A stretch of 63,927 bases of DNA, counting the filler, from Licmophora abbreviata (Eukaryota), in assembly GCA_900291995.1 (NCBI GenBank). It is 8 parts of 8 records of this genome, joined end to end, with 100 filler letters (N's around TTAATTAATTAA, not from the genome) between each part and the next. Parts side by side here need not be neighbours in the genome. Positions count along the whole stretch, not along the records: positions 27,691 to 39,242 come from OLMU01003296.1; 7 more parts are not named here. One strand, given 5' to 3'. The position numbers and the translations under genes were made by a program. The notes beneath the pieces are model-generated. The model saw only the letters and a program-made list of their open reading frames with translations, was not told the origin of the DNA and did not search any database. Shown one piece after another: positions 27,691 through 58,651 of the stretch; positions within the stretch are counted from its first letter, which is position 1; each line of letters starts with the position of its first letter.

Positions 27691-28751
27691 GGGACAACAG
27701 TGGCGAACCATTTCCGACCAATGACACTGCGGGCGCTGGTACTGTTTTGCTCACCACGTCGAGCCCATCGCTGCGTCCGAGTGAAAGCCCATCGTCGCTA
27801 CAGCCCAGTGCGGCGCCATCGACCAACGCACCGACCCACATTCCTTCCAGTGCACCAACGTTTCTCCCATCCTCACAACCATCCATGTATACGGCCCCCA
27901 ACACGACCTTTTATGCCATTGCCGACGTACCATACAATGACGAACACATGCTACTCTTTCCTTCTCTTGTCAAGTCGGTACCAGACGACGCCGAGTTCCT
28001 CATTCATCTGGGCGATTTGAAACCGGGAAACGACAAGTGCTCAGTCGAACAGCTTGAGCTTGTAGACAGCGTCTTGAAAACATCTACTGTTCCTACATTC
28101 GTGATTGTTGGAGACAACGAGTTCAACGACTGTCGGGATCCGGGTCAAGCGTTGAATGACTGGCGTGCCATGTTTTCGCGATACGATCGGAAATACTGGA
28201 ATCACCAATTACCAGTCAAACTCATGCCGAGTCGCAACGAGACGTTTACCTTTACACACAAGGCTATACAGTACTTTGGAATCAATATTGTGTCTGGCAA
28301 TGTCCACGATCGAGGTGAATGGCGAGACCGGCTGACTGTGCAGCTCGCATGGATGAAATTGCATATACTAGCCAACCAAAAGAGCCGGGAGCCGGCTAGC
28401 ACAATTGTCATATTTGGACACGCCATTCCTGGACAGCCCAATACAGACTTGTTCTTTAAGCCGCTTCGAGACTATGTAAGGGATAGTCTGGAAGATGCGG
28501 TTCCGATCGTTTACATCTCAGCCGATGCGCACCGATTCGTGTACGAAGAGAATTTCTTTCTACAAAGCAGCATGTTGCGAGTGACCATTGCAGGCGGCGT
28601 GAAGGAGCCCCCTACACGGTTTACGGTTGACCCGAAAGTCCTGACTGGAGTCAACGATACCGTTACGGTGGAGCGTTTCTGGAATGACGAGTACATGAGT
28701 GTCGTCAACGGTAGCATGAGTACTGCAGAGTACATGAATGGAAAAAGCTAG
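27691..28751 (+). CDS. Calcineurin-like metallophosphoesterase with a Pro/Ser/Thr stalk, 5' end truncated by the gap
   Basis: AIADVPY, IHLGD, VGDNEFNDC, FGHA and ADAH metal-site motifs, preceded by PSxxPS repeats. Confidence 0.8.
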
Positions 28752-29054
28752 TTGGAGCTACGCATTTATAACCAAGTCCTAAGTACAAGGATCAGATGAT
28801 ATGGTTGTAGAGGCCGTGTATCATCTGATTACTAGGGAAGGGCTGTCTATCTATGAGTTTGATGCAGTTTGTAGAATATTGGCAAAGACCTAGTCTACTC
28901 TTTCAGTACATGGTGCAAGATCTGCGTTGCATTTACAACCTACGATATGTAACAATCGACAAACGTGCTAGGTGACCCACTCGACTCGACCGACTGACTC
29001 TGTCAAATTTGCAAATTTGTCGTCTTCGATTTTTTCAGTCACATCGGCACGACC

Positions 29055-30353
29055 ATGACGACGACAACGCCGCGGTGGGCCTCTTCCTCGATGCCTTCTG
29101 ACGCTTCTGATCCTCAATCGCACACCCCTCCTCCTGCTACTGCTCGCGCTAAACCTTGGTATGGACAAATTGTCGTCGGCTGTCCAGGTGTTGGGAAAAC
29201 GACGTATTGCCATGGCATGCAAGAATATCTGCGATTGTTGGGTCGAAATGCGTGGGTGATCAATCTGGACCCGGCCAATGAGGGGTATCGAGACGACATC
29301 GATGACGGGAATGGGGAGGTTCGTAGTAGTGACAGTGATGGGGCTTCTGATAGAAGAATGTTGCCTTATGAGACGCTAGTGGATGTTCGGCGTGACATGA
29401 TCGATTTGTCCGTTGTCATGGAGCAGCTCGACTTGGGACCGAACGGGGGACTGCTGTATTGCATGGAATATCTGGAAGCACACGTCGATGAATTCGTTCA
29501 ATTGATTGAAGAACGGGCCTTTCAGCAGTCAGAATCGGATTCATCTCCATTGTACTTGCTCTTGGACTGTCCTGGACAAGTCGAACTGTACACGCACAAT
29601 CATGCCATTCCAAGTTTCATTCGAACAATTGTTAAGAGGCTCAACTTACGACTCTGTGGTGTCCAGCTGATTGACAGTCAGTACTGTTCGGATGCTATGA
29701 AATTCTTATCTGCTGCTCTAGTATCCACCATGACCATGGTGCGACTGGAATTGCCCATGGTGAGCGTACTTTCCAAGGTGGACCTGTTGATGAGCGGCAA
29801 TAGCAGCCTACATGGTGACGAGGCGCTGCCACTGTCACTCGAGTTCTTCACAGACTGTCCTGACCTGACGAGACTCATTCCTTTCTTGGAGGATAATGGT
29901 GGAGTCATTGGAGATGAAACTGACAACTCGGAATCAACCTACGCGGACGATCCGGACTATCAAAAGGCTCGTCAGCGGGTTCGACATTCGGCCTTTTTCC
30001 GCAAGTACACCAAGCTGCATACGCTACTGGCCGAAGTTGTGGATGACTACTCGTTGTTGAATTTTGTGCCGTGTGACATTCAAAGTGCCGAAAGCGTCGG
30101 GCGGGTGGTGGCCAAGATAGATCAGTGTACGGGATTTCTATTTGAGACGAGTCGTCGAGACCCACGTGGTCGTCATCCTGGCGTTGGCAGTGACGCGACT
30201 CCGACAAGTACCCCGCAAGATTTGTTTCAGTGTGCGGTACAGTCTGAAAGCAGTATTTCGCGATACGAAGCAATAGCCGATATCCAAGAGCGCATGTCGA
30301 TGCAGCGCATAGGCGAAGAGAGCGCCACAGCAGCATTGACAAAATCGACGTAA
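29055..30353 (+). CDS. GPN2: GPN-loop GTPase 2
   Basis: GCPGVGKTTYC, INLDPAN, LGPNGGL, DCPGQVELYTH and ELPMVSVLSKVDL. Confidence 0.88.
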   Translation: MTTTTPRWASSSMPSDASDPQSHTPPPATARAKPWYGQIVVGCPGVGKTTYCHGMQEYLRLLGRNAWVINLDPANEGYRDDIDDGNGEVRSSDSDGASDRRMLPYETLVDVRRDMIDLSVVMEQLDLGPNGGLLYCMEYLEAHVDEFVQLIEERAFQQSESDSSPLYLLLDCPGQVELYTHNHAIPSFIRTIVKRLNLRLCGVQLIDSQYCSDAMKFLSAALVSTMTMVRLELPMVSVLSKVDLLMSGNSSLHGDEALPLSLEFFTDCPDLTRLIPFLEDNGGVIGDETDNSESTYADDPDYQKARQRVRHSAFFRKYTKLHTLLAEVVDDYSLLNFVPCDIQSAESVGRVVAKIDQCTGFLFETSRRDPRGRHPGVGSDATPTSTPQDLFQCAVQSESSISRYEAIADIQERMSMQRIGEESATAALTKST

Positions 30354-30434
30354 GCAGGCTGGTAGAGTTGTAAGTGTCGTAGCGTATAGGCAGGGGGATC
30401 GACTATCGACTATACGACTTTATACTATAAATTT

Positions 30435-31205
30435 CTATCTTGAGTCATCTATTTCGTCTTCTTGTAGCAGGCGTTGCCGTTCCTCTCGCAGCCGCAAGGC
30501 AGCCTGCTCGTGCTCGTAGTCTTCTTCTAGCTCGAGGCGGCGTTGGTTGTTCCAGTGCAAGACGTCGTTGAGGAGTGACACAAAGACCCCGGGTGTTGTT
30601 GATGTCTTTGACTCTCTACAGCAGCAGTCGTACCATTCCACATTACCATCTTCCTCCTCTGCATCACCATTGATTGTATCCAAAAGACGAAGTTGCAACC
30701 GCAGTTCATCTTGCGTCCTCTCATCACTGTCGTTCGCATTAGTACCGTCATGGTGTCCATCATCCCTCCGCGTGGTCCAGATCTGGATTTCGGGAGCACT
30801 TGCGTTCTTTCGTTCGACAAGCTCGACGCGAGCAATGGTGCTGAGCGGTATAGTAGTCGTTACCATAGAGTCCTCCTTCACATCCTTCGTCCTGGTGGTG
30901 GTGATGGTAGCATCATGTTCGTCGTGAGTGATAATTTCGAGAGCCGGTTCGTCGTGTTCCAAGGAGTCCACGAGCCCTATTGAGACATGTACCTGCATCT
31001 CCCCGTCTCTAGGAACTGGATCTGTCGCTAATGAAGCTCTGGCGCACGCCATTGTCCACTGAACGATGGCCATCTCTCGCTGTGACAGGACGGCCACTGC
31101 GAGGCGAGCTTGGTATTCATCGTCGCTCTCGTGACAGGGACACAGACAGCCAAACCAACGTAATCTACCGAGCGATCCACAGCACAACGAAGAGGACACT
31201 ACCAT
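30435..31205 (-). CDS. Hypothetical protein with Cys clusters and a C-terminal coiled coil; start uncertain (frame open to 31439)
   Basis: Long ORF with LCC..CLCPC and YDCCCR clusters. Confidence 0.55.
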   Translation of the reverse strand: MVVSSSLCCGSLGRLRWFGCLCPCHESDDEYQARLAVAVLSQREMAIVQWTMACARASLATDPVPRDGEMQVHVSIGLVDSLEHDEPALEIITHDEHDATITTTRTKDVKEDSMVTTTIPLSTIARVELVERKNASAPEIQIWTTRRDDGHHDGTNANDSDERTQDELRLQLRLLDTINGDAEEEDGNVEWYDCCCRESKTSTTPGVFVSLLNDVLHWNNQRRLELEEDYEHEQAALRLREERQRLLQEDEIDDSR

Positions 31206-31471
31206 CGGTCGGACTGCATGTGGTGAGACTAATAGGCGATGGTACGACGCTGAGATTGTAGTGGCTGTCGACTTTATCCGCCAAGCATCATGGTGATGCC
31301 CTTCGGGTTCCTGCGCCGGCGCGCTGCGAGAATGTCTTTCGAAACTTTGAGTCGAAGAAGTCAAAACGTCAAAGGGCGCGCCATACTTCAATGACACACA
31401 AACCGCATCATGATTGCCATGATTGTTTAACTTTCTCAATCTGCTTGGACACTGAGCGACTCTCTACAGGA

Positions 31472-33119
31472 ATGAATCCCAAAACAGACCGCCACGCCAT
31501 AGATCGGAAGAGTCTCTGGGACATGTACGATGTGAAGGAGCCTCTGGGTGACGGTGCCTTCGGCGACGTCTATCGCGCGTGCAGAAAAGACGGATCCGAC
31601 GACGGTCAGGAGGAGGTACGTGACTGATATTTATATTGATACGGGCTGAGACTTCATGATCGCTCTGTGTCCAACCGTAGAAGTAGAAGTGTCGCATCGA
31701 GATCCACGCTCCTGGTACTGCTCGGAGGCTCTGTGACAACCATTGCAGCAGTCGGCATCACATCATGGAGCGATCTTTCAGGTCCGGGTTACTATAGTTC
31801 TGGCGGGCAGTGTTTTGCTACCACGCAGAAGTCAGTACTATTCGAATCTATGAAAAGTGTCAAACGACTATTCGTCCAACGCCCCTACCTAACGCTTCTA
31901 ACGAACTACTACATTTCTTTGCTCCCCTTCCAAACGTTACTACAGGTCGCCATCAAGATCTTGCGGGATGGAGTATCGAGCTGGAACGAGTGTATGGTCG
32001 TTCGGGAGCTTCAGAGCCTCCGTCACTTTTCCAACACTCACAATCACATCGTGCAGCTCTACGAGGTCCACATGGAGGCCGGCAAGCTCATGTTTGTCTT
32101 TGAACACATGCCAGATGGGAACCTCTGGACTATGATCTGTTCCCATGCGGTTCAAAAGTCCTCTCTCCCTCAGACCCTCGTCCGATCCATCACCAAACAG
32201 ATCCTTCAAGCCCTTGCCTTCATCCACGCCAAGGGGATACATTCACCGCGATTTGAAGCCCGAGAATATTTTGTTTCGAGGCACCACGTGCAAGGTGGCC
32301 GACTTTGGAATGGCTCGACTCGTCCACGACCACGGTCCCTGTACGGACTATGTCGCCACGCGTTGGTATCGCGCACCCGAAATCTTGCTGCACAGTCAAC
32401 GATACGGCACGCCCATTGACATGTTCGCCCTCGGATGTCTTGTCGCAGATCTCCATCGACACTGGCCGCTCATGCCAGGTGAATCGGAAGCCGAACAGAT
32501 TGATCTGTGCTTTGCCTTGACAGGCGTCCCGTCTCAAGAGAATTGGCCTCATGGTGTAGTGCTAGCCGAGCGTATGAAGCTGGAACTTCCGGTTGTGGTG
32601 GAAGGAGATCCGTACGAGTTCGCTCGACCGCGACAGATCCAGCGCATGATTCTGAGCGAGCACGTTTCAGCAGCATCGCCGCAGGCCGTTGCGTTCATGC
32701 AAGCGCTCTTTCAGCTCGATCCGAGACCCCGTCTCTCCGCCAACCAAGCGCTGGCGCATCCGTTCTTGTGCGCCTACTCTACAAATAGTAGTAGCATGCC
32801 AAACACGGGTCTGTCTGCTCAAACGCCAAGCGCCACACCGAGTACCGACGAGTTGGAGAAAGGGAAGCAAGGGTTGTCTGTCAGTCTAGAAACCGTATCG
32901 TCAGGCGTCGTTAGTATCGCGACCGCAGAGCAGCAGAGCGTCATGCGTCGTCGCGAAATAGGTGCATCAGCTTCCGCGCCATTCGCGTTTCGGCAGCGCC
33001 CCGTTTCTGTTACACCGCACGACGACCCAAGCGCAGCCTTTCGCTCTCCAACAGCGGTGGTTCGACCGACGCTGGTGAACCCGCACGACGCAAAGAAAAG
33101 ACGAATGGCAGTCTCCTGA
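31472..33119 (+). CDS. MAK/ICK (RCK family) Ser/Thr kinase; intron 31616-31945; +1 frameshift at 32233-32236
   Basis: LGDGAFGDVY, then VAIK and FVFEHM; HRDLKPEN, DFG and TDYVATRWYRAPE lie in a shifted frame. Confidence 0.85.
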
Positions 33120-33248
33120 AAGAGACGTTCTTGGCGGAAGAGCCGAAGGGGTATACTAAGACGAGCTTATTGACTCAGCCTTGAGTAGCAGTTGACATGT
33201 GATGATCGATTGACGTTGGATCTAGTATTGGTAGGCGCTGACTTTGGA

Positions 33249-36200
33249 CTAGAAGTAGGCCATTCCAGTCTTTTCGCACGAGCTGATGTACGTGCTCAAA
33301 CTCTGGCATCTCAGAAAACTTTCTAGAATCAGATCGAAATTGTCCAGACTCATCGCTAGGTCCGTGTCAAGCGCAAGTAGTGCGTCGACCGTCTTCTTTT
33401 TATCCCTTGCCTCCAGCTTGAACAGTGGAGAGTAGTGACCCTGAGCACGCAAGTTCTTGACATGGAAAAACCTATCCTCGTCAAATAGAACGGTGCACTC
33501 GGCCTCCGTGCCACTCCCGTCGGCTTGTGTTTCCTCGATCCAGAAACAGCAGGACGAAATACCTTCGTGAAACGGTGAAACGGAAAACGTCGTGTTAGAA
33601 GCATGCACCCCAGCCATGTAAGCGAGCCAATAGACAAAAAGTAAAACGCACCAGCGAGCAGCTCACATACGAAGCCGCGGCACACCTCGGATATCTTTTT
33701 AATGTCCGAAGGAGGGCTAGGGTGATGTGCGCGATTGAAGCTCTGTGTCGCAAGAGGACTGTCACAATGCCAAGTGTCTGGGTACAGGGCAGAGCCAAAG
33801 CGCACTCCCAAGGCTTGTGCTAGATAGAGCGTTTGCGAGCGGATTGCAGCAGCGGTTGCCACGCGATTCGAGCTTCCTCGCAGAAGCTCGTCGTTGCTTG
33901 CGAACTCAGGAGCCAAGATCACTCTGCCAACATCAAGGTCAACCAACGTAACATCCATTGGCAACGAGTTTAGAAGCTCAATGTTGCCAGGATCTTCAGT
34001 GGAGATTCCGAGAATGTAAGGCGCCGGATACTGCAACAAGTCTCTTCCCAGCGCGGATGGGACAAGCGGAACGAGTAGGTGAGACCAACGGAGAGGCGCC
34101 AGTAGGCTCGTAATCGTCGAGACAGCCGAAAATAGAATACTTCTGCGACTCGAGGAGAAGACAACCTTTTGTTCCATGAGGATCGTGACGAAAAGAAGAG
34201 CTAACGGTATCGGTGGAAGACAGCTGACGAGTTGTTGTCCTGCTTGTTGCGCGAACTCATGCTTCTGGCTCCGAAGCGGAGTGTTAAGCCAGGGTGAGCT
34301 AGCATGGCGAAGATATGGTTCGAGAATACATTTCAGGGGGAACTTTTCTACATCGTCGTGAGCAAAGTTGCCGAGTAGTTCCACGAGGGGGGCACAGAAC
34401 AGGGAGCCATCGGCTTCCGATCGACAGATATCGAGGAAAAACAGAGAAAGAGTGTCTCGCATGGCAAGGACAGTATTCTGGTTGCTAACGAGGGCCAATC
34501 CCACTGTGAGCGGCCCTTCAACTAGACCAGCACTCTGTCGATTCCGAAGGCGTTCGTTCCATGTCCTCTCCTGTAGCTTCTGGTTGAACTTTGGCGCGTC
34601 CTCATTGACAGTGATCGTATAAAGCCTTTTCTCTGCAGTTGATTGGGGGGCAGACCCGTTCATGCATCGAGACTCGAACTTCACAGGAGACGCGAACTCG
34701 ACTCTTTCGTTGATTGTGCCACGTCCGACGGACGTATCCTTCCTGAGCGATAGTTCAATCTCTGGATGAACTGTGGCACCTTCAATGTCGCCCTGCTGCA
34801 ACACGAGAGAGACGCCATATAGGGCGCTGTCGTGCTCCCCATGCGCCGATGAAGATTCCACGTTTGGAACCATGAAACTGATAAGAGACACCTCCCATCC
34901 ATCAGAGCTGTCAGGTCACAGGAAAAGAGTGAGTCTCCGGCGTAAGGAGTGACGGAAAATTGTTCAGACAACTTACCTCAGACGACACATTGACGAATCT
35001 TTGGAGAATGGCGATCTGCGCAACGAAGGCACTGTCGCATAGCTCTCAAGTGTTGGGGGCATTCGACTCGAATCAATCATCTCGGCGCGCTCATCGTTGT
35101 CAACAATAACTTCCGAACAAACATAGCGTCTGATGTCGAACCGATCCATTGCTGGATTCACTACTCGATCTTCAACTTCTGATCCGTCATCGCTTCCGAA
35201 GACGAACGCAAAGTCCGCATTCGCATACTCCACCCTTTCGCTAGGTCTGTCGAGATTTTCTGCGTCCTGCGCCAGCGACTTGAGCTCGCCATCCGATTTC
35301 GTAGGACTTCGAATTGGCTTGTGGGCAGAAACACCTGTCGGAAGCTCAACCCGTCGAAGCAGTCTTCTAATGCAGCCTGACGGAAGCATAGATAGCACAT
35401 CCATTTCATGTAACACCGGCATTCCATCCTCTGGCAGCTTGCACACCTCACTGCACATCCATTCATGGAACTTATGCTCCTTAAATTTCTGGTGTGGGCC
35501 CGTAGCGTAGCCATAGAGAAGTTCGGTGGACAAGCGGTCAAGGGCTTCATTGAGCTGAGATGACGTGAGGAGCTCAGTCATTTTCTCTTCGTTCCCCTGC
35601 GACTTAGTCGCCTCACGGAGACAACTTCTCACTTTGGCCAGCGCGTCGTCGATCTCGTTGGAGCTAGACATGCCTTCCAACATCCCACCTCCCGGGGCAA
35701 CGAATACCTCCCACAGATGCTCAAACGATGAAACCAAAGAAGCGAAGGAACCTGATTCCGCATCTTTCATTTTGTTGATAGCCTCCTCGAGATCCCTCTT
35801 GATGAACACAGCACATGCAATGCCGGCAGCTGAGTTCGCCACGCGGTCGCCAGAATCATCAACAACGTCGTCGTTCTCCCCTCCAATGCTCCGTTCCCTT
35901 TGACAAATGAGATGCAACAACAAATAAAGAAAGTAGTTGTTGGCTGATGCGCTGCGGCGATCCCCCGTGATGCCATCGAAAACAGTTTTTGGACAAACTG
36001 TCATGAGAGGAGCGGTGTTGCGTAGATAAGCCCTCATCCTCGCGCACTCGTCGGAAATAAGAAATGATATGAAAGGGGTTCCGCAAAGTGAGTCCATGAC
36101 TGCTTTCTGGAATGGCACGAAAAGGTTCCGCGGAAGAGGGCAGTCGACGTCAGTTAGGGCTTTCTCCAGCGCTCGAAGGTCGGAGTCCGGGACAATGTGA

Positions 36201-38552
36201 TGAAAGTCGAACATTGGAGGTTCAACTCGACTTCCATGCGTCGAAGGTAAGAAGAATTTGTACGCTATCTTCCTTGCCAAGTCCCAGCGCCTTGGAGCGG
36301 GTGTTAGGGCATGCAGTTCAAGGAAAGACATCAACTCTAGAAACAGCATCAGTTGCGTACCCACGGTGGACTTGGGCAGTGCAGCAATCTCATCTTGGTC
36401 CGTTTCAAAGGACTCTTCAGACGAAAAATGGGCTGACAAAAACGGAAGACGACGGCCATCAACAGCGCACGTCACGAAAGCATTCTGCAACGCAGCACGA
36501 AAGTTAGCGTCGGAACTGGCCACCTGATCGAGCGCTGACAACGAAAAGTTCTCGTTACAGCTGCATGATCCATGCGAAAGCATAGCGACGTTTAGAACGG
36601 CGATACTATGTTGTAGACATTCTCGGGGAACACAAACCCACGTACCGTTTTGCGACTTGGCCTGATATCGCTCGGCGCACTGAAATCGGCGGCGAAATGA
36701 CATTCGTGGGATTGGCACCCTCGAATGTATGAGCTGATATGATCCAGTTTACCGGTGTTTCGTCACTCGACTCCGCCTCGTGCGGAGAATTTCCGGTGTC
36801 TTCTACACGTTTGTCGGCTTCGTCCACGTGAAGACCCTCGTTGGCCTCGTCGATCTTCTTATCAACCTCGGACGACTCCTTTGAGAGTTTTATGTCTCCT
36901 TCCTCGAAAATTGTGGGTGACCTCACGTCAGGCTCAGTATCCTTGTCGATAGCGTCTGCCTCATCGTTCCCCTTGCCCGCGGTTTCTGCGGACGAATCAA
37001 CAGGCGACTTACGTGCCTGGTCTACGTCTAATGTTTCATCCCGAGCGATGCTGCCATCCTTTTCATTTCCTTGCTTTGTGGAATTGATGCCGTTATCGTT
37101 CACATCTTCTTTGCCAGTAAGTTTCCCATTAATACCCTTTGGGTCCTCGCCATCGCTGTCTGCCTGCGAGTTTCCACCCTCATGGCGCGACAGACCATTC
37201 TCGTTTCCTTCATCTTCTTCCGTCTCCTCCGCACCACTACCATCACCCTTCGGAAGCGTGACGTGTTCCGCACCACTCTCTCCCTCCTCTCTCCATTTGT
37301 GCATCATGCCTACCGCTACATCGACATAGTTCATCCGTTCCAACGCCAGGCGTTCTTGTCCCGTCCCAAACACCAGAACCGCCGGTCGCTTCGCGTCCGC
37401 AATTGTCCTAGGCACATTCGATATGGTGCCCTTGCGCACATCCGTCTCGCCCACCTTGACAATGGTATCTCCCACCCGCACCACATCCGACTGGTACGCT
37501 GCTCCGCCTCGCACGAGAAAATCAACATACACTCCGTGATTACGAAGATATGTCTGTTTGAGATTGACTCCCAACATTCCATTTCCCAACAACATGACGT
37601 ACTGAAAGGGTTCCAATGCATCCATAATGGACTGCATGTACTTGGCAGCGCGACTCTGCAAAATTAGTGACGTCTGGGACGGTGATGGACTCGTAATGGA
37701 GTCTCTCTTCTTTTTGGATGTTGGTGTCGTTGTAATAGTTGGCGACGATCGTCCACTACTATTGCCAGTACTGTAACGACCTCGAAATCCGCTCGCCACC
37801 GTATCTGCCACGACGGATGCAGCCACCTTAGCTGCCATGGTCATGCGGGGAGGAGGAGGAGTGTCGGTGGTAGCAGTAGAAGTGGAAGAGCGAACTTCCG
37901 AGGAAGACTTTTCGTAGTCTTCGTCCGTGGCACTGCCTTCCTCTTCCAAACTACTTTCACCCTCATCGTCGTCATTGCTACTGCTGCTGTTGCTGTTTTC
38001 GTTACTTTCATCATTTTCACTTTTCTTACTGTGGACATCCTTGCTGTCTGCCGACGGCGATGTCACAAGAGCTGCATCAGCAGAAGCAGACGACGACGCA
38101 GGTCGAAACAAGCTAGAAGCAGAGGATAATGACATGGTATTGCGCGTGACACTGTCATTGGCCATTTGTCGCCAGTTGCTGAAGCGATTCATGAGAATGC
38201 GAGCACCACGGGAATTTTGGAGTGTTTCATCGTCGTCTCCATCAGTAGTAGTACTGTTGTCTTTGGGGTCGGTAGCAGTACCAGCACCACCGGAAGATAG
38301 GGAGGGGGCTGGTAGAGAATTCTGATTTGCTGTTTGCGCCGACTCGGAAGTAGCCGATGGACCGACCAGTGTAGCATCTTGCTTTTGGGGCAGTAACGAA
38401 TCTTCATCTGCTGCTGATGATGGTAATTGTTGCGTTGATAGAGTTGAAGGCCGTGCGTCATCATCGTCATCATTGCTGATAGAGGAGTCTGGAAGTTGAG
38501 AAGCAGCGATTTTGCTCATTTCACCAGCCTCATCACCTTCCACACCACTCAT
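33249..38552 (-). CDS. 1686-aa PDZ + RGS-like + DENN (Rab GEF) protein; introns 36561-36645, 34908-34976 and 33563-33651
   Basis: PDZ: LGVNL..GVYVDFLVRGGAA..VRVGDTIVKV. RGS-like: LFLELMSF..LARKIAYKFF..FISFLISD. cDENN: ILMEQKVVF..LLAPLRWSHLLVPLVP..LLQYPAPYILG..VDLD. dDENN-like: LESFLRCQSLSTYI. All splices keep frame (5061 nt). Confidence 0.85.
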
Positions 38553-38970
38553 GGGTTCTTTTTGTTAAATTTTATGTAGTAGAGTCAACGCCGGTGTCGT
38601 CGTTTGCTATGGTCAGTCTATAAACTCTCGTCCTCGCTTCGCCAACAACAAGTCAACAAAGGCCCGCTCGGCTAAAACCTAAAACTCCAAATTCGAACTT
38701 GGCGAATTCACAATTCACAGACAAGTTATCAGACCCTCTCTGTTGAGACAAGATCGGTCACTAAAAAGAATTACACCGACAACATGTCATCACATACGAA
38801 TCTCTATGGAATCTTCGATCATTAAACATCATACGCATTTGCATAACTAATTTTATTGCGTCATCATCACTTATGGAATCGAAAAGTTCGCAACTTCCAA
38901 AGATTTCGTTCCAAACTGAATTCTTGACACTAGAAGAGCATCACCATGACGATGAACCACCTCCACTATC

Positions 38971-40345
38971 ATGTCCGATACTAGCAATTCTACCGACAAC
39001 AGCAACAGTCTCTCCTTGTTTGTCTTGTTCTTGACTCTCTTTTGCATTCTCTTCTTGATTTCCGCCTATGTCATTGCACATGGACTTTGGAAGTTTTGCA
39101 GTCGATACTGTGTTCGGACTAGGAGTCGACTGGGATGCTGCTGTTGTGCCATTAATGTCGACGCGTATCGACGAGAACGTGACAGTTTACAAAGATTACG
39201 TGAATGAGAAGGATCCATCGATTTCAAACGTGGCAGCAGCAANNNNNNNNNNNNNNNNNNNNNNNNNNNNNNNNNNNNNNNNNNNNTTAATTAATTAANN
39301 NNNNNNNNNNNNNNNNNNNNNNNNNNNNNNNNNNNNNNNNNNGGTGCTGGTTTGCCGTTGGGAGCCCAAATATCATCCTCGGCAACAGGATCGTCGTCGA
39401 CGACCCATCAGTATCCTACAGTCACAGGCCTAGCCACCTTTTCTCAAATTCCAGGACCCATCCCCAGTCATACTACTCCTACAACAACACTACGAGGAGA
39501 AATACCGGAACTTGCCACCTTTTCTCAAATTCCAGGGCCGATACCCAACGTCTTGTATACTCCGCCTCATCATCATACCACAATTATGGGCTTTGTACTC
39601 GTCGATGCGACACGACACGCATCCTCCTTATCACAGCACAATGCGGCGGCGATGACTCGATCGTTTGCACTGCGAGACCAACTGTCACCAGAGAAACGGC
39701 GAGCCATATTGGATCAATTGTTAGTGTGCAAGATCTATCATTGCCGCGATGGTGGTGATGATGATGATGCTAGTGAAGCCGTGACAGCTGAAACAGTGGA
39801 AGAGGGACGAAGGCAGGTAAAAGAAAAAGATAGGGACGAGCCGACACTACAACCACAAGAAGACACCACAGAGTCTGACGATGACGGTATGCGACCACAG
39901 AGCTACGCGTTTCCCTTACACGAGGAACCTGCCACACCAGAGCTGACCTGCGCCATTTGTCTCGATGGTTTTGGTAAGTTGTTACGTGTGAACCCTATCG
40001 GATCGTCATACAATAAAATGGACTCGCTCACCCACTCTCTCACTCACACAATGTGATTCCAAAGTCAACGGCGAATACATCAATGATACGAGCAAGTGTC
40101 CGCATGTCTTCCATCGTACCTGTTTGTTGGAATGGTTGGACAAGCATGATGTTTGCCCCTGCTGTCGACGACCCATGATTACCAATGAGGAATGGCGGCG
40201 CGTTGCAGAAGAGCAAATACTGTCTGCTGCAGCTGCTGCTACTACGACTACTACTGTTGATGGGATGACTACCGGTGCAACACGAAATGGTTTGGTACTG
40301 GCGACTGTGGCATCACACGAAACTCCCGCGGAAAGCGATGAATGA
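38971..40345 (+). CDS. TM-anchored RING-H2 (ATL-like) E3 ligase spanning a gap; intron 39974-40064; 5' part has a premature stop or indel near 39205
   Basis: N-terminal TM (LFVLFLTLFCILFLISAYVIA); after the gap, CAICLDGF|V..CPHVFHRTC..W..CPCCR. Joining the two parts across the gap is an inference. Confidence 0.7.
39243..39342. other. Assembly gap spacer
   Basis: N44-TTAATTAATTAA-N44. Confidence 0.98.
39433..39536 (+). repeat. Intragenic direct repeat: 23 nt identical, 81-nt period (LATFSQIPGPIP twice)
   Basis: gccaccttttctcaaattccagg at 39433-39455 and 39514-39536. Confidence 0.9.
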
Positions 40346-47831: not shown

Positions 47832-50554
47832 TCAAATTGCATCAATGATGCTGTTGAGAGTCTTGGAGGGACGCATAGCCTTGGTTGCCTTCTCCGTATC
47901 GAACAAGTAGTATCCTCCGAGATCGACAGGCTCGCCTTGACATTCCTTGAACTCGGCGACAATATCGGTACGGGCATCGGACAACTGGTCAAATAGCGGC
48001 TTGTAGGCAGGATCCTGTTGCTGAAGGAAGTCAGCCCAATAAAGTGCGGTGTAGTATCCCGTTGCGCGGTTGTCAATCTGGTTCACGGCACGGGACGGAC
48101 TCTTTCGGTTGTTTAGGATTCGACCGACAGCATCATTGAGACAGTCTCCAAGCATCTTGGCCTTCGCATTGCCCGACTCCCCAAGACGCTGGAATGCGAC
48201 AGCAAGGGCGAGGTATTCTCCGAGACTATCCCATCGCAGGTGACCTTCTTCAGTAAACTGCTGGACATGCTTGGGCGCACTGCCTCCGGCTCCGGTCTCG
48301 TAGAGACCCCCGCCGGCCAACAGAGGTACGATGGAAAGCATCTTGGCAGAAGTGCCGAGTTCGAGGATCGGAAAGAGGTCCGTGAGATAGTCGCGGAGGA
48401 CGTTTCCGGTGACCGAAATCGTGTCCTTTCCATCCGCCGCTCGCTCCATGGAAATACGACAGGCATCGACGGGTCGCATGATGGAGATGTCAAGGCCATC
48501 GAGGTTGTGGTCCTTCAAATAGAGATTCACCTTGTCAATGAGAGACGCATCGTGGGCACGGTTCTTGTCGAGCCAAAAGATGGTACGAGCACCCGTGGCA
48601 CTAGCCCGAGCGACGGCCAACTTGACCCAGTCCTTGATGGCGTCGTCTTTCGTCTGGCACATGCGCCAAATGTCGCCCTTGTCCACGTCATGTTCAAAGA
48701 TGGTCTGCGAAAGAAGACGATACGAGCGACGGTAGCAACGTGATTGTAAGAGATAAACAAACAGTTCGATTGCGCGTACAAAGTCGCATCCACCGTCTCG
48801 TCCAATACTTACATCATTCGTCTTATTGTCCTTGACGATAATCTTGCCGTCACATGGCGCTTCGAACGTCTTATCGTGCGACCCATATTCCTCCGCCTTG
48901 CGCGCCATCAAACCGACATTGGCCACGTTGCCCATTGTCGCAACATCAAACTGTCCTCGCGTCTTGACAAACGAAATAACTTCTTGATACATGGTTGCAT
49001 AGCATCGATCCGGAATAAGGCACTTGGTATCTTCCATTTCCCCAAGTTTGTTCCACATTTTTCCAGAATCGCGCACCACCACCGGCATGGAGGCGTCAAT
49101 GATGATGTCGCTCGGTACATGCAGGTTAGTAATACCCTTATCGGAATTCACCATGGCCAACCACGGTCGTTCCTCATAACACGCTTCGAAGTCATCCAAA
49201 ATTTGCTTGGCCTGATCTTTTGGAAGTTTCGTCTGAATGGAATCAAAGACTGCCCCAAGGCCATTGTTGGGATTTGCACCAATCTCGTCTAGCACCGTCC
49301 CATGTTTGTCAAAGGCTTCCTTGTAAAAGACCTTGACGCAATGTCCAAACATGATGGGATCGGAAATCTTCATCATCGTCGCTTTCAAGTGCTGGATGAT
49401 GATGGGCAGTGGTATGTGGGTGTGAGTTGTCGATATACACAATAAAACAAGCTCATATCAGTCACGACTCACCAGACTCAACAAGATATCTGTTTCTTTC
49501 GCCTCGTCAATTTCCCGTTCATAAAACTTGTTCAACTCCTTGATACTCATCTTGCTGGCATCCATGACCTCGTTGGCTTCCAAAACCACACTACTTTTCA
49601 AGACCGTCTCGGCTCCCTTATCACTCATCAATGTAATACTGACATCCATACCCGCAGTATCTACAATACGCGACTGTTCCGTTTCATAAAAGTCTCCCTC
49701 CGTCATGTGCGCCACATGACTCCGACTCGCCTTACTCCAAAGCCCCATCCGATGGGGATTCTTCTGCGCATACTGCTTGACCGGCAAGGCCACCCTGCGA
49801 TCGCTGTTGCCCTCGCGCAAGACGGGATTGACGGCCGACCCCAAGACCGTGGCATACTTGCGCTGCACCTTGGCATCCGCGTCCGTCTTGACTTCCTGCG
49901 GATACAAGGGCACGTTGTAACCCTTGCTGCGGAGTTCCTGGATGCAGGCTTCCAATTGAGGGATGCTGGCAGAGACATTGGGCAGTTTGACAATGTTGCA
50001 GTCGGGCTGTTTGCAGAGTGTGCCGAGGTACTGCAAATTGTCTGGAACGATCTGATGGTCCTGGAGTGTTTCCGGAAAGGTGGCCAAGACACGTCCTGCG
50101 ACGGAAATGTCACAGGGGATAATGTCAATGTCGGCGAGGGAAGCGAACTGATGTTTGTTGTGAGCGTAAGAGAGAGCGTGAATCAAAGGTGAGATTTTGC
50201 AATCTTACTAGTAGCTAGAAGAAGTAGTAGAAGAAGAAGTAGTCTACTCGTTCTGTAGTTTTGGCGTACCTTTTGAATCAAGGGGAGTAGATTGTAGGTC
50301 GCCAGCGCGGGTGCCTCGTCCGTTTCGGTATAAATGATGGATCCCTTGGCGTGGGGCAGCGGCGTGTAGGGGTGGGACGACGTTGGCGGAGCGGTGGAGA
50401 AGAGACGCGGCGTTGTTGCGTACAAGCAGGACGCAGGAGGAACAGAGTAGTTACTACTGCGGACAGTCTTCCTTGCCGTAGTGACCGTCGTCCGCAAGGC
50501 CGATGACAAGGATCCAGACGGACGCAGGAAGCGAGCTGCGGAGAGCATAGTCAT
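47832..50554 (-). CDS. IDH: Monomeric-type NADP-dependent isocitrate dehydrogenase with a mitochondrial presequence, 803 aa; introns 50148-50269, 49392-49472 and 48705-48812
   Basis: [90 protein letters not shown] and [11 protein letters not shown]. Confidence 0.95.
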
Positions 50555-50650
50555 GCTCTTTAAAAACGTTGTTACGATGAGAGCAGCGCACCGGTAATGC
50601 AACACTGCACACACAGCGAGTGAGTAAAGTATGAACGTGTGCCGATGATG

Positions 50651-50682
50651 GATCTTTCGATCTTTCGATCTTTCGTCTTTCG
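50651..50682. repeat. (GATCTTTC)3 plus one degenerate copy upstream of IDH
   Basis: gatctttcgatctttcgatctttcgtctttcg. Confidence 0.8.
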
Positions 50683-51201
50683 CCATGTCTTTTTCTTGGT
50701 TGGCCAGCTGATCTAGTTGCAGTTTGGAGCTCGAGAGAATGTCGCATCAGACAAAGAGAATGTCCGAAGTCGATGTTCGAAGTCGAATGAGTCGATCCAT
50801 TCTCACAGAACACGCACGACTTCCCCGTCACACACTCATCATCATCTCACACAAAAAGAAAAGTGCCAGAAGCAACTTCGTCACCCCATTCTCATCGAAT
50901 CCTGCTCAGCGAGTGTGCGACACGCTGAGTCCTCTCTTGTGGAGTCTCTGCATTGTACGTTGCTGCCCTGTGGAGTGCAAGAGAGTGGCTCGTTGTCTTG
51001 TAGGACAGAAAACCGAAGTTTGCTATTTTTGACCGCATCGTTCGAAACGGAGGTGCTACATCATACTCATCCTCAACATCGGAGTGTTTAATTTTTTGTC
51101 CATTGGCACATCATTCTCACTCTTTTGCACCTTCCCTTTTGGTCTCCTTGTCTCCTTGCTTCGTCAAAACTCAAAAGAGCACTTACACCCAATCATCCAT
51201 C

Positions 51202-54728: not shown

Positions 54729-55307
54729 CTATTCATCTACACCAAGCTGGGAGTCAAGCTGGCGAATCAACCCAGGCGTCTTGCTTTCCTCTCTTACTTT
54801 GGCTAGGATCGTCTTGATATCACTCACTGCGTTGGTTTGTTCAATGTGAAAGGGCTGCAAGAACGTCGTCACAGCATGATCTTGACAGTTGTGAGCCGCA
54901 TCGGCAAGAGTATACAGGGCCTGACTGTTGGTCTTTTCCGCTTCCAACAAGTCAACCCAAAGATTTTCGGTAGACTCCCATTTTTGATGTGGAGCTGCCA
55001 GTCGTTCAAGTTCCAAGGGAAAGTCTCGTTTGAGAGCAAAATCTACCAGTTCTAGCGCATGGACTCGTTCATCGGTACTCTCCTTCAACATCCAGCTTGC
55101 CATTCCCGTCAGTTCTTGTTCACTGCACCAAACACTCGCTGCAAGGTAGAGCTGCGAAGCATTCAGTTCGTTGGTAATTTGCGAGTTGAAGAGAGTATGG
55201 AGTGTCTCAATCTTCTTCTTGGCACTTGATAGTAGCATGCGACGACTTCTACTACTCGGTTTGGTGGCTTGCGATAAGAGACGATGGGAAAACATCACGT
55301 TCGTCAT
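54729..55307 (-). CDS. FTN: Ferritin (diatom/bacterial non-heme type) with a mitochondrial-like presequence
   Basis: FNSQITNELNASQLY, KESTDERVH, LEAEK, FLQPFHIEQ and TPGLIRQLD. The first in-frame ATG is at 55307. Confidence 0.92.
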   Translation of the reverse strand: MTNVMFSHRLLSQATKPSSRSRRMLLSSAKKKIETLHTLFNSQITNELNASQLYLAASVWCSEQELTGMASWMLKESTDERVHALELVDFALKRDFPLELERLAAPHQKWESTENLWVDLLEAEKTNSQALYTLADAAHNCQDHAVTTFLQPFHIEQTNAVSDIKTILAKVREESKTPGLIRQLDSQLGVDE

Positions 55308-55601
55308 GATGGAGGGGGGAGAGCGATCCGATGCTTGCGATGAACAGAAGTGTCGGGAGAAAGAACAAAACAACAAAATGCTTCCAACTTCCGACTTCAA
55401 AGGCGAAGTCTGAAGTCTTACCTCCAGTCACGAGTTCCTCAGACCCGGGTCTCAACTGGTTCTAAGTTTTGAAGTTGGCGAGTACGAAATGACTGCGGGC
55501 AGGTCAATGGACAATGAGAGCCGCTCGTTTGTCTGTGTGCCGGTCCTCGTCATCACAGCCCTTGCTGGCTTACACCCTAACTCTATTCCTTCTTATTCGC
55601 C

Positions 55602-57333: not shown

Positions 57334-58651
57334 CTACAAAATATCCGATTCCAAGTATATCTCTTCTTCCCCTCCTCCCTTCGTCCGTTGCCTCCCTCCA
57401 CTCTCCACTTCTGCCTGCATTCCCAGATATGGTTTCCACGTAGGATGGACCCGCCGGGGCAACATTCGTCCTGCCACGGCCGCTAGTTCGTACTGCGAAG
57501 GCACAAAGGGCTCTCGTACCAGCTTCATGCCCACTCTCTTCAAGTCGCTGACAGGCAAACACCCCTTTCTTCCATTGCACTTGTGGCAACAAGTGACTGC
57601 ATTTTCCCTAAAATGGAAGTAATAGTATTGGATGCAAGTCGAGTGGCGCAGGTGGTTGTGAGAAGGGCGATCTTCTCCCTGCGTTATAGACGCCCACCGA
57701 CACCCTTTTTGTACTTACCAACTTAGATTTCCTCCTTGACTCCGTGGGACAACGTGATCCAACGATAGATCCCGCGTCCGAAACATATCGCTGCAATACT
57801 GACATCGATACTCATCTCGCAAAAAGACATTGCGTTTCGTAAAGGCCGGGCGATGATGATGCACTGATTTGGGAACATATACGTTCAAGGCAATGACGGA
57901 CGGCAATGGAATTTCCAGATTGGCGGCACGGACAAAGACATCGGGGTAGACGTCGACCACGGTGACTTTGCCACTAAAGACGCTCTTGATGGCATCTTGC
58001 CAGTGCCAGAGAGAGAGGGGGAGATGAGAAAGAGGTTGATAGTCGGCGTTGAGTACAAGCGATGGGCGGCGATTGAGTGCTTGGAGGTAGTTGTGGGGAC
58101 TCCGTTGAAGGATCTTGTTGGTTTTCAAGGTTCGGTCGCGTAGAAGTCCTCCAGAGCCGTGCAGGTATTGATGAGCCACGTGATGAGCAAGTTCTTGTTG
58201 CGACAAACCGTTATCAGAAGGATGTGACTTGGAAGGAGAAGTAGCAGCAGCAGGGGTGGTGATGGTAGATTGCTTGTTTCGCTTTTTTTTGTTCTTTCGG
58301 CGGTGCTTGGCATTGCGAGGTGGCACGCTAGTACTAGTAGAAGCATCGGCAAGTTGTTCTGTGTCGCTACTACTACTGCTACTGCGAGCGGATATGAACG
58401 GCATGGGTGGTCGGGAGCGAGTCGATAGCGGCATGTCTGAGGAGTAGAATCGACAACAAGGGCGATGAGATCGGCGTCGCTATACTACCGGCTGCTTCAG
58501 TCACAGCGAGGAAGCGCCAGCTTCAATAATCCAATTGATTGATTTGAAACGCACCATATCGCTGTCTCTGACTCGTCCTGGCTTGAAAGGAGTCAACAGG
58601 AGTCCAGAACATGGAAGTGACTGCGACCAGCAGATAGACCGAAAGGAGCAT
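57334..58651 (-). CDS. HNH endonuclease (McrA-like), putatively plastid-targeted, 362 aa; introns 58437-58554 and 57608-57718
   Basis: Exon 1 is a signal peptide ending VDS-FQAR. Core: LVLNADYQPLS, FTKRNVFLRD..CQYC, LDHVVPRSQGG..W|ENAVTCCHKCNGRKG, HPTWKPYL. Confidence 0.88.

Follow-up and report, generated by a model that had tools for sequence, protein, structure and literature searches.

A predicted, divergent RGS-homology domain between the PDZ and DENN domains of a diatom protein family: a candidate regulated Rab guanine nucleotide exchange factor

Does the diatom Licmophora abbreviata join a domain of the RGS type (for regulators of G-protein signaling) to a DENN module, the guanine nucleotide exchange factor (GEF) module for Rab GTPases, in one protein, and if so, which partner would the RGS-type domain read? 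This question is raised by a gene at 33249–38552 on the minus strand of a 63,927-nucleotide stretch of DNA (the window) from assembly GCA_900291995.1. The window consists of eight parts of eight records, joined end to end with 100 filler letters between each part and the next, and parts that are side by side need not be neighbours in the genome; positions 27,691 to 39,242, where the gene is found, come from OLMU01003296.1. The original prediction, made from the sequence alone, described a PDZ-RGS-DENN fusion that senses G-alpha and is built like the animal proteins PDZ-RhoGEF and LARG. Structure modeling in this study indicates that positions 36011–36493 encode a true but divergent RGS-homology (RH) domain. 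On balance, the whole protein is perhaps best read as a regulated Rab GEF in which this RH domain would serve as a non-catalytic dock for a GTP-loaded G-domain partner.

The domain on which this reading depends was identified by an AlphaFold2 (AF2) model and a structure search:

36011..36493, minus strand (amino acids 659–819): RGS-fold (RGS-homology) domain 1

The piece of the protein encoded by exon 2 was folded with an alignment of 74 relatives. The mean predicted local distance difference test (pLDDT) value of the model was 78.9 and its predicted template modeling (pTM) score was 0.74, with pLDDT values of >90 for most of piece residues 45–445. The ~40 N-terminal residues of the query, which were partly intronic, had pLDDT values of 31–42 and made no contact with the RGS domain. 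The VIA-align structure search, which covered 48,161 representative chains and was independent of Foldseek, placed RGS/RH domains at 13 of the top 50 entries, on piece residues 63–223. The best of these was SNX13 (7wf6), with a Z of 13.6, a root mean square deviation (rmsd) of 2.5 Å and 129 of 145 residues aligned at a sequence identity of ~15%. It was followed by RGS3 (Z 12.2, rmsd 2.2 Å, 119/127 aligned), RGS4 (Z 12.2, rmsd 2.2 Å, 116/116), EhRGS-RhoGEF (Z 11.7, rmsd 2.5 Å, 122 aligned), axin (Z 11.6, rmsd 4.5 Å, 134/147) and SNX25 (Z 11.1, rmsd 2.6 Å, 116/117). Lower matches included RGS7, GRK2, RGS9, PDZ-RhoGEF (rgRGS, Z 8.7) and p115 (Z 8.5). In a second look at the 1000 best chains of Foldseek, RGS/RH proteins made up 49 of the top 50 entries, and every row listed by Foldseek for domain 1 was an RGS or GRK protein. 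The segment at about 36040–36490 had been predicted to be RGS-like, and an RGS fold extending through the full domain was found there by both the model and the structure search. In addition, a language-model search with the RGS segment returned RGS for its top three clusters (score 0.86), which is taken as a lead only. The chain 9fqr_Ou was not counted. It aligned with 254 residues over both helical domains of the piece at a Z of 12.6, but with an rmsd of 27 Å, and its identity as RGS22 was unconfirmed; the entry 9fqr is described as containing RGS22 in its source (PMC11779644).

At the sequence level, Pfam gave no match to the exon-2 piece at E ≤ 1, and by phmmer the piece matched only APOBEC in the PDB, a chance match with an E of 0.78. 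The whole-family profile matched solved DENN and PDZ domains, and no RGS protein was found among the best 60 of its 161 matches. The PDB matches of the homologue P0103 were to PDZ domains only. The Pfam RGS family (PF00615), for which the cut-off is 23.9 bits, was passed by four homologues, P0103, P0107, P0145, and P0150, with 26.8–28.1 bits (28.1 for P0103). P0145 and P0150, which belong to the cluster of P0107, possess PDZ, RGS and DENN domains all above the Pfam cut-offs and in that order. The RGS domain of the window was matched by P0103 with an E of 1.4e-33 and by the P0107 cluster with an E of 1.4e-28. The branch formed by these four homologues contains a canonical-looking helix, LMFWLEVQSF, compared with LMLFLELMSF in the window protein. 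This Pfam-visible branch offers a helpful link for alignments between the family and classical RGS proteins.

The RGS-fold domain is preceded by a PDZ domain and followed by a DENN module:

37338..37640, minus strand (Pfam core 37431–37586; amino acids 323–374): PDZ domain, PF00595
34700..35218, minus strand, approximate limits: uDENN-like beta-rich region across intron 2, with the conserved motifs NAxxAVVFG, DIRRY, PxTxESYAxVP and DGWEVSL..LYGVSL
33932..34243, minus strand (amino acids 1386–1489): core DENN (cDENN), PF02141

Both domains had been proposed in the original prediction, the PDZ-like segment at about 37365–37595, and both are above the Pfam cut-offs. The PDZ domain was matched with 28 bits (E 3e-6; cut-off 23.2), and the family profile matched solved PDZ domains with a best E of 1.4e-4. 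A GxGMLGVNL loop, which we take to be the PDZ carboxylate-binding loop, is conserved across the family, and GMLGV is present in the window protein. The DENN core was matched with 72 bits (E 7.7e-20; cut-off 23.4), and the family profile matched DENND1B (3tw8_A, E 7.6e-8) and DENND1A (6ekk_A, E 6.2e-6). When 36 relatives were scanned with Pfam, PDZ was found in 24 and DENN in 31; in a second set of 24 relatives, PDZ was found in 21 and DENN in 15. Many relatives in both sets are fragments. Conserved blocks flank the DENN core, and one source names the homologue P0028 a "UDENN domain-containing protein." From its conserved motifs, we infer that the region at 34700–35218 is uDENN-like. Strands were predicted in this region, but the model stopped at the exon boundary, which left them with low pLDDT. 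The C-terminus of the protein (33252–33320) is also conserved and ends with M-A-Y-F in the window. Among 50 homologues that keep FLRCQ near the end, 49 have Met and one has Ile, followed by 3–6 mostly aromatic or hydrophobic residues and the stop; the last residue is most often Tyr (21), followed by Leu (7), Phe (6) and Ser (5). This conserved tail may serve as a ligand for a PDZ domain or belong to the last helix of the DENN module.

These domains are encoded by four long open reading frames (ORFs) that were listed at 36606–38564, 34973–36748, 33356–34915 and 33249–33662 within 33249–38564 of the minus strand. Frame-keeping GT..AG pairs were enumerated, and relatives were then used to choose among them, which resulted in the following gene model:

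36646..38552, minus strand: exon 1, N-terminal region rich in Ser, then the PDZ domain and an acidic linker (ORF; end set by homologue alignment to 36645 and a GTACGT donor)
36561..36645, minus strand: intron 1, 85 nt, GTACGT..GCAG (tblastn of homologues; junction ..QVAKR/CNENF..)
34977..36560, minus strand: exon 2, with the RGS-fold domain, the second helical domain and the first part of the uDENN-like region (ORF; 74 homologues)
34908..34976, minus strand: intron 2, 69 nt, GTAAGT..ACAG (junction ..MCRL/SSDGWEVSL..)
33652..34907, minus strand: exon 3, DENN module (Pfam PF02141, E 7.7e-20)
33563..33651, minus strand: intron 3, 89 nt, GTGCGT..GAAG (junction ELLAG/ISSCCFWIEE)
33249..33562, minus strand: exon 4, last part of the DENN module, then the conserved C-terminal tail and the stop codon (33249–33251)

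The first Met, at 38552, is directly after an in-frame stop. The spliced coding sequence is 5061 nt and encodes 1686 amino acid residues, the same length as originally predicted from four ORFs and three canonical introns, and the junctions match the homologues, whose alignments are gapless over all three of them. The peptide at junction 1 fits the family consensus RxxxxxxxxxRxxDxF, that at junction 2 retains the consensus spacing PFx7RxSxDGWEVSL, and that at junction 3 equals the consensus ELLxGxxSCCYWIEE. By tblastn, the homologues P0002 and P0003 read in the exon-1 frame down to 36645 (E 5e-6 and 6e-5, respectively), and the next homologue alignment, in the exon-2 frame, begins at ~36556. 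The intron 2 junction is crossed by the blastp alignments of homologues to the spliced product. Two homologues derived from transcripts, P0026 and P0029 (the latter given as a complete transcript by its source), are colinear by blastp with amino acids 111–434 and 641–1690 of the spliced product. The exon-2 piece alone found 74 relatives with E values from 4e-154 to 2e-36; thus, a chance origin of its coding signal is excluded as judged by sequence comparison. The four ORFs are one real diatom gene, with junctions supported by homology. Junction 1 is probably the least secure of the three, because its stretch is weakly conserved.

Other intron choices were rejected. The GT..AG pair at 36752–36680 is in frame and would give 1690 residues, and it was rejected because P0002 and P0003 align straight across it in the exon-1 frame. 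For intron 3, only 33651–33563 among the donor/acceptor pairs matches the family consensus. The pair at 36752–36680 would remove residues conserved among homologues; it either misleads gene callers as a decoy or is used in alternative splicing.

With the 401-residue RGS region as query, phmmer was run exhaustively against 1.84 billion representatives and identified 89 clusters, counted at 50% identity, at E ≤ 0.001, of which 82 were at E ≤ 1e-10; this search returned no canonical RGS protein. A profile search among long proteins identified 38 members, all with E ≤ 3e-108 and nothing weaker. The pennate members were from Pseudo-nitzschia, Nitzschia, Cylindrotheca, Seminavis and Mayamaea as well as a Bacillariaceae metagenome-assembled genome, and the centric members were from Skeletonema and two Thalassiosira. 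The family is small, and all its members with a named organism are diatoms. The arrangement of PDZ, RGS-fold and DENN domains is conserved across diatoms, and the family shows an RGS-fold domain in both pennate and centric species that sequence models have mostly missed. In a 2013 survey of four diatoms, T. pseudonana was the only one reported to have an RGS domain that is complete by Pfam (PMC3727952). The public names of the relatives are "DENN domain-containing," "UDENN domain-containing" or "hypothetical." The literature searches, which did not cover the architecture survey of Anantharaman et al. (2011), found no report of an RGS-fold domain fused to a DENN module, in agreement with the earlier statement that no characterized protein has this domain order. 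A term search of the accessible part of a 2012 DENN survey found no mention of RGS or PDZ (PMC3521125). Rab GEFs of the DENN type were known before, as were RGS-GEF fusions; the combination seen here would be new.

Between the RGS-fold domain and the uDENN-like region is another helical domain, for which a possible second, degenerate RGS had been suggested from the stretch LWEVFVAPGG...KFKEHKFHEWM:

35426..35962, minus strand (amino acids 836–1014): second helical domain with RGS-like topology (structure model)

This domain had a pLDDT of 87 and a pTM of 0.83 when folded alone, and both helical domains were modeled together as one confident unit (pTM 0.74). In the structure search, RGS domains that span the whole model accounted for 6 of the top 50 entries: SNX13 (Z 10.6, rmsd 2.7 Å, 129/145 aligned), axin (Z 9.2), RGS3 (Z 9.2), RGS4 (Z 9.1, rmsd 2.1 Å, 107/116 aligned), EhRGS-RhoGEF (Z 8.4) and SNX25 (Z 8.3). 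The top match was a designed four-helix bundle (Z 10.7), and many other bundles scored alike, covering only residues 45–160. The best Foldseek match had an E of 0.44, and the language-model Atlas returned CTLH at 0.86, with low recognition. In the alignment by the family profile, helix 5 of RGS6 falls on the LWEVF.APGG stretch at a non-significant E of 0.46, and hhalign did not detect a repeat between domains 1 and 2 (E 0.15 over 12 columns). The RGS-like topology of the suggested second RGS was thus found (Z 8.3–10.6), but generic helical bundles tie with it (Z 10.7). A degenerate RGS domain is plausible from the model, with the chances for and against it about evenly balanced.

How the parts would work together can be proposed from their order, which is a Ser-rich N-terminus, the PDZ domain, an acidic linker, the divergent RH domain, the second helical domain, the DENN module and a conserved aromatic tail. 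The PDZ domain would hold a membrane protein by its C-terminal tail and thereby tether the diatom protein, and the DENN module, judging from its family, would exchange GDP for GTP on a Rab. A G-domain protein loaded with GTP would dock on the RH domain, which would itself be non-catalytic, and the docked partner would recruit or unlock the GEF, so that the whole protein would work as a regulated Rab GEF. We infer every binding and catalytic step of this mechanism. GTPase-activating protein (GAP) activity of the RH domain on G-alpha is unlikely as far as the sequence can tell. The family profile found only three sequences in the PDB at E ≤ 10, all of which are RGS-homology proteins (including GRK5, E 0.15, and RGS6, E 0.46). 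In the non-significant alignment with GRK5 (E 0.15), the PPMFDF loop falls at PVFI in the alpha5-alpha6 loop of GRK5. The position aligned with what we take to be the catalytic Asn of RGS4 is occupied by Phe in domain 1 and by Glu in domain 2. Two more G-alpha contacts of RGS4 (Glu/Asn) are in the alpha3-alpha4 loop; in the family alignment, this loop of domain 1 contains an insertion that varies in length and sequence. These features suggest that the G-alpha contact residues of canonical RGS GAPs are not conserved.

Several results weigh against a regulated Rab GEF with an RH-domain dock. Foldseek found nothing for domain 1 at E ≤ 0.001, with a best E of 9.8e-3. The Pfam RGS family did not match the window protein at E ≤ 10, nor any of the 36 scanned members at the same threshold, nor any of the 74 relatives in precomputed Pfam results. 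Pfam uDENN and dDENN were found in none of the 36 scanned members and were absent from the 19 families listed. Moreover, the apparent loss of G-alpha contacts depends on non-significant alignments (E 0.15 and 0.46) and on the residue roles assumed for RGS4.

The partner of the RH domain is the point on which the alternatives differ, and G-alpha and Rab are about equally likely for it, each a tentative candidate. If activated heterotrimeric G-alpha is sensed, the RGS domain may either have GAP activity or be an RH domain of the effector type, similar to those of p115, LARG and PDZ-RhoGEF, by which signaling through G-protein-coupled receptors (GPCRs) would lead to Rab activation. Most known RGS-fold families bind G-alpha. 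The RGS fold was confirmed, effector-type RGS-GEFs were among its matches (EhRGS-RhoGEF, Z 11.7; rgRGS of PDZ-RhoGEF, Z 8.7; p115, Z 8.5), and both animals and protists evolved RGS-GEF fusions that serve as effectors of G-alpha. In addition, G-alpha and G-beta were reported in all four diatoms of the survey, yet a complete PF00615 in only one of the four, a gap that a hidden RGS domain would fill (PMC3727952). The occupation of the Asn position by Phe or Glu and the variable alpha3-alpha4 insertion, so far as a weak alignment can place them, argue against G-alpha, and so does the best structural match, SNX13, for which a 2026 preprint calls a robust GAP role on G-alpha into question (PMC13596360). 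Thus, the originally predicted architecture, with PDZ, RGS fold and DENN in one polypeptide, stood, and the predicted G-alpha sensing was weakened by these contact positions, by the match to SNX13 and by the absence of a Pfam RGS match in the window protein. That diatoms independently built a PDZ-anchored device coupling G-alpha to Rab, with GPCR signals gating vesicle traffic directly, is still more doubtful than G-alpha sensing itself. If they did, secretion or frustule-related exocytosis, for example, would be gated in the way in which G-alpha12/13 gates Rho via RGS-RhoGEFs in animals. With an RH domain that reads G-alpha, the protein would connect heterotrimeric G proteins directly to the traffic driven by Rabs. 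If instead one or both RGS-homology domains bind a GTP-bound Rab, which is possible to the same limited degree, a Rab-binding domain would stand beside a Rab GEF and form a Rab cascade or a positive feedback loop. For domain 1, the top match is the RGS domain of SNX13 (Z 13.6), which also leads the RGS matches of domain 2 (Z 10.6), and the diatom protein itself is a Rab regulator by its DENN module. The tandem RGS-like layout presumably resembles that of D-AKAP2, which also speaks for Rab. According to the same preprint, SNX13's and SNX14's RGS domains bind Rab5 and Rab11, respectively, directly and in a GTP-dependent manner; the preprint also cites binding of D-AKAP2 RGS to Rab4 and Rab11 and asks if other RGS-fold proteins bind Rabs too (PMC13596360). 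This evidence is tempered by the status of that report as a preprint and by the lead of SNX13 over R4-type RGS domains, which is only ~1.4 Z units and assigns no subfamily. Rab sensing is considered about as likely as G-alpha sensing because, by weak alignments, the canonical contacts look unconserved and SNX13, reported to bind GTP-Rab5, is the best match. If the RH domain reads Rab, the Rab-binding role of RGS domains would extend beyond the sorting nexins.

It is unlikely that the RGS-like domains bind no GTPase at all and are an axin-like peptide scaffold or an internal lock on DENN. DENN GEFs are often autoinhibited, the RGS-homology domain of axin, which binds an APC peptide, is nearly as good a match (Z 11.6–12.6), and both helical domains form one confident unit in the model. 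However, the conserved surface motifs PPxFDFHH and ECARMRAYLRNTAP are in loops used elsewhere for G-domain binding, which would suggest an external partner. A fusion that is only an artefact of two wrongly joined neighbour genes, one with PDZ and RGS and the other with DENN, is very improbable. Many database relatives are partial models with only PDZ or only DENN, as such an artefact would have it, but the blastp alignments of homologues continue without a break from the RGS region into DENN and on to the C-terminus of the spliced product, the transcript-derived P0029 and P0026 span the PDZ, RGS and DENN regions, and the parts are separated neither by a stop codon nor by enough space for a promoter.

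Similar to PDZ-RhoGEF (ARHGEF11) and LARG (ARHGEF12), the diatom protein has a PDZ domain, then an RGS-homology domain and then a small-GTPase GEF module. Different from them, its GEF module is DENN, for Rabs, whereas theirs is DH-PH, for Rho, and it has an additional second helical domain. Pfam scans of the window protein and its relatives found no DH or PH family. Because the DH-PH module is lacking, the diatom protein is a layout analogue of PDZ-RhoGEF and LARG and not a member of their group; of the original comparison, the analogous domain order remains. Outside animals, Naegleria reportedly has an RGS-RhoGEF, another fusion of RGS with a small-GTPase GEF. The Entamoeba EhRGS-RhoGEF (PDB 4gou) is also a fusion of this type outside animals. 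These protist proteins target Rho, whereas the diatom protein would target Rab, and they do not have PDZ. SNX13, SNX14 and SNX25, whose RGS domains include the best structural match (SNX13), are likewise proteins of membrane traffic; the diatom protein, however, lacks their PXA, PX and nexin-C domains and the identity is ~15%. In D-AKAP2 (AKAP10), RGS-like domains are in tandem. D-AKAP2, compared here by description only, is similar in its RGS-like domains, with Rab4/Rab11 binding being cited for D-AKAP2 (PMC13596360), and different in having neither DENN nor PDZ. The DENN core of DENND1A and DENND1B (connecdenn, the Rab35 GEFs) was matched by the family profile and PF02141, but PDZ and RGS domains are absent from the DENND1 proteins. 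The RH domains of GRKs are RGS-homology domains without GAP function. They gave a sequence-level PDB match of the family profile (GRK5, E 0.15) and structural Z values of 9.1–11.2. Different from the GRKs, the diatom protein has no kinase domain.

Around the gene, no G-alpha, Rab or other RGS genes were found in the remainder of the window. A run of N at about 39250–39340, taken as an assembly gap, is ~700 nt upstream of the start codon. Just upstream of the gene in the window, on the opposite strand, is an ORF for a RING-H2 finger (39992–40345, plus strand), and in Cylindrotheca the homologue P0015 (1906 residues) contains RING (PF13639) and DENN in one gene model. A RING beside or within the DENN gene may reflect conservation of the neighbourhood or the merging of two genes in a gene model. 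At the other end, a protein kinase gene of two ORFs (31640–33116, plus strand) converges on the 3' end of the DENN gene, with its last ORF ending ~130 nt from the stop. Elsewhere in the window, the ORF at 57718–58479 (minus strand) has a partial HNH endonuclease motif at its end (PF14279, 27.3 bits versus a cut-off of 27.5; PF01844, 23.4 versus 21.4) and no family match in its remainder. A monomeric isocitrate dehydrogenase at 47835–50746 (minus strand) is split over three ORFs, the largest of which matches PF03971 with an E of 2.7e-232, and the ORF at 54732–55427 (minus strand) is ferritin-like (PF00210, E 1e-23).

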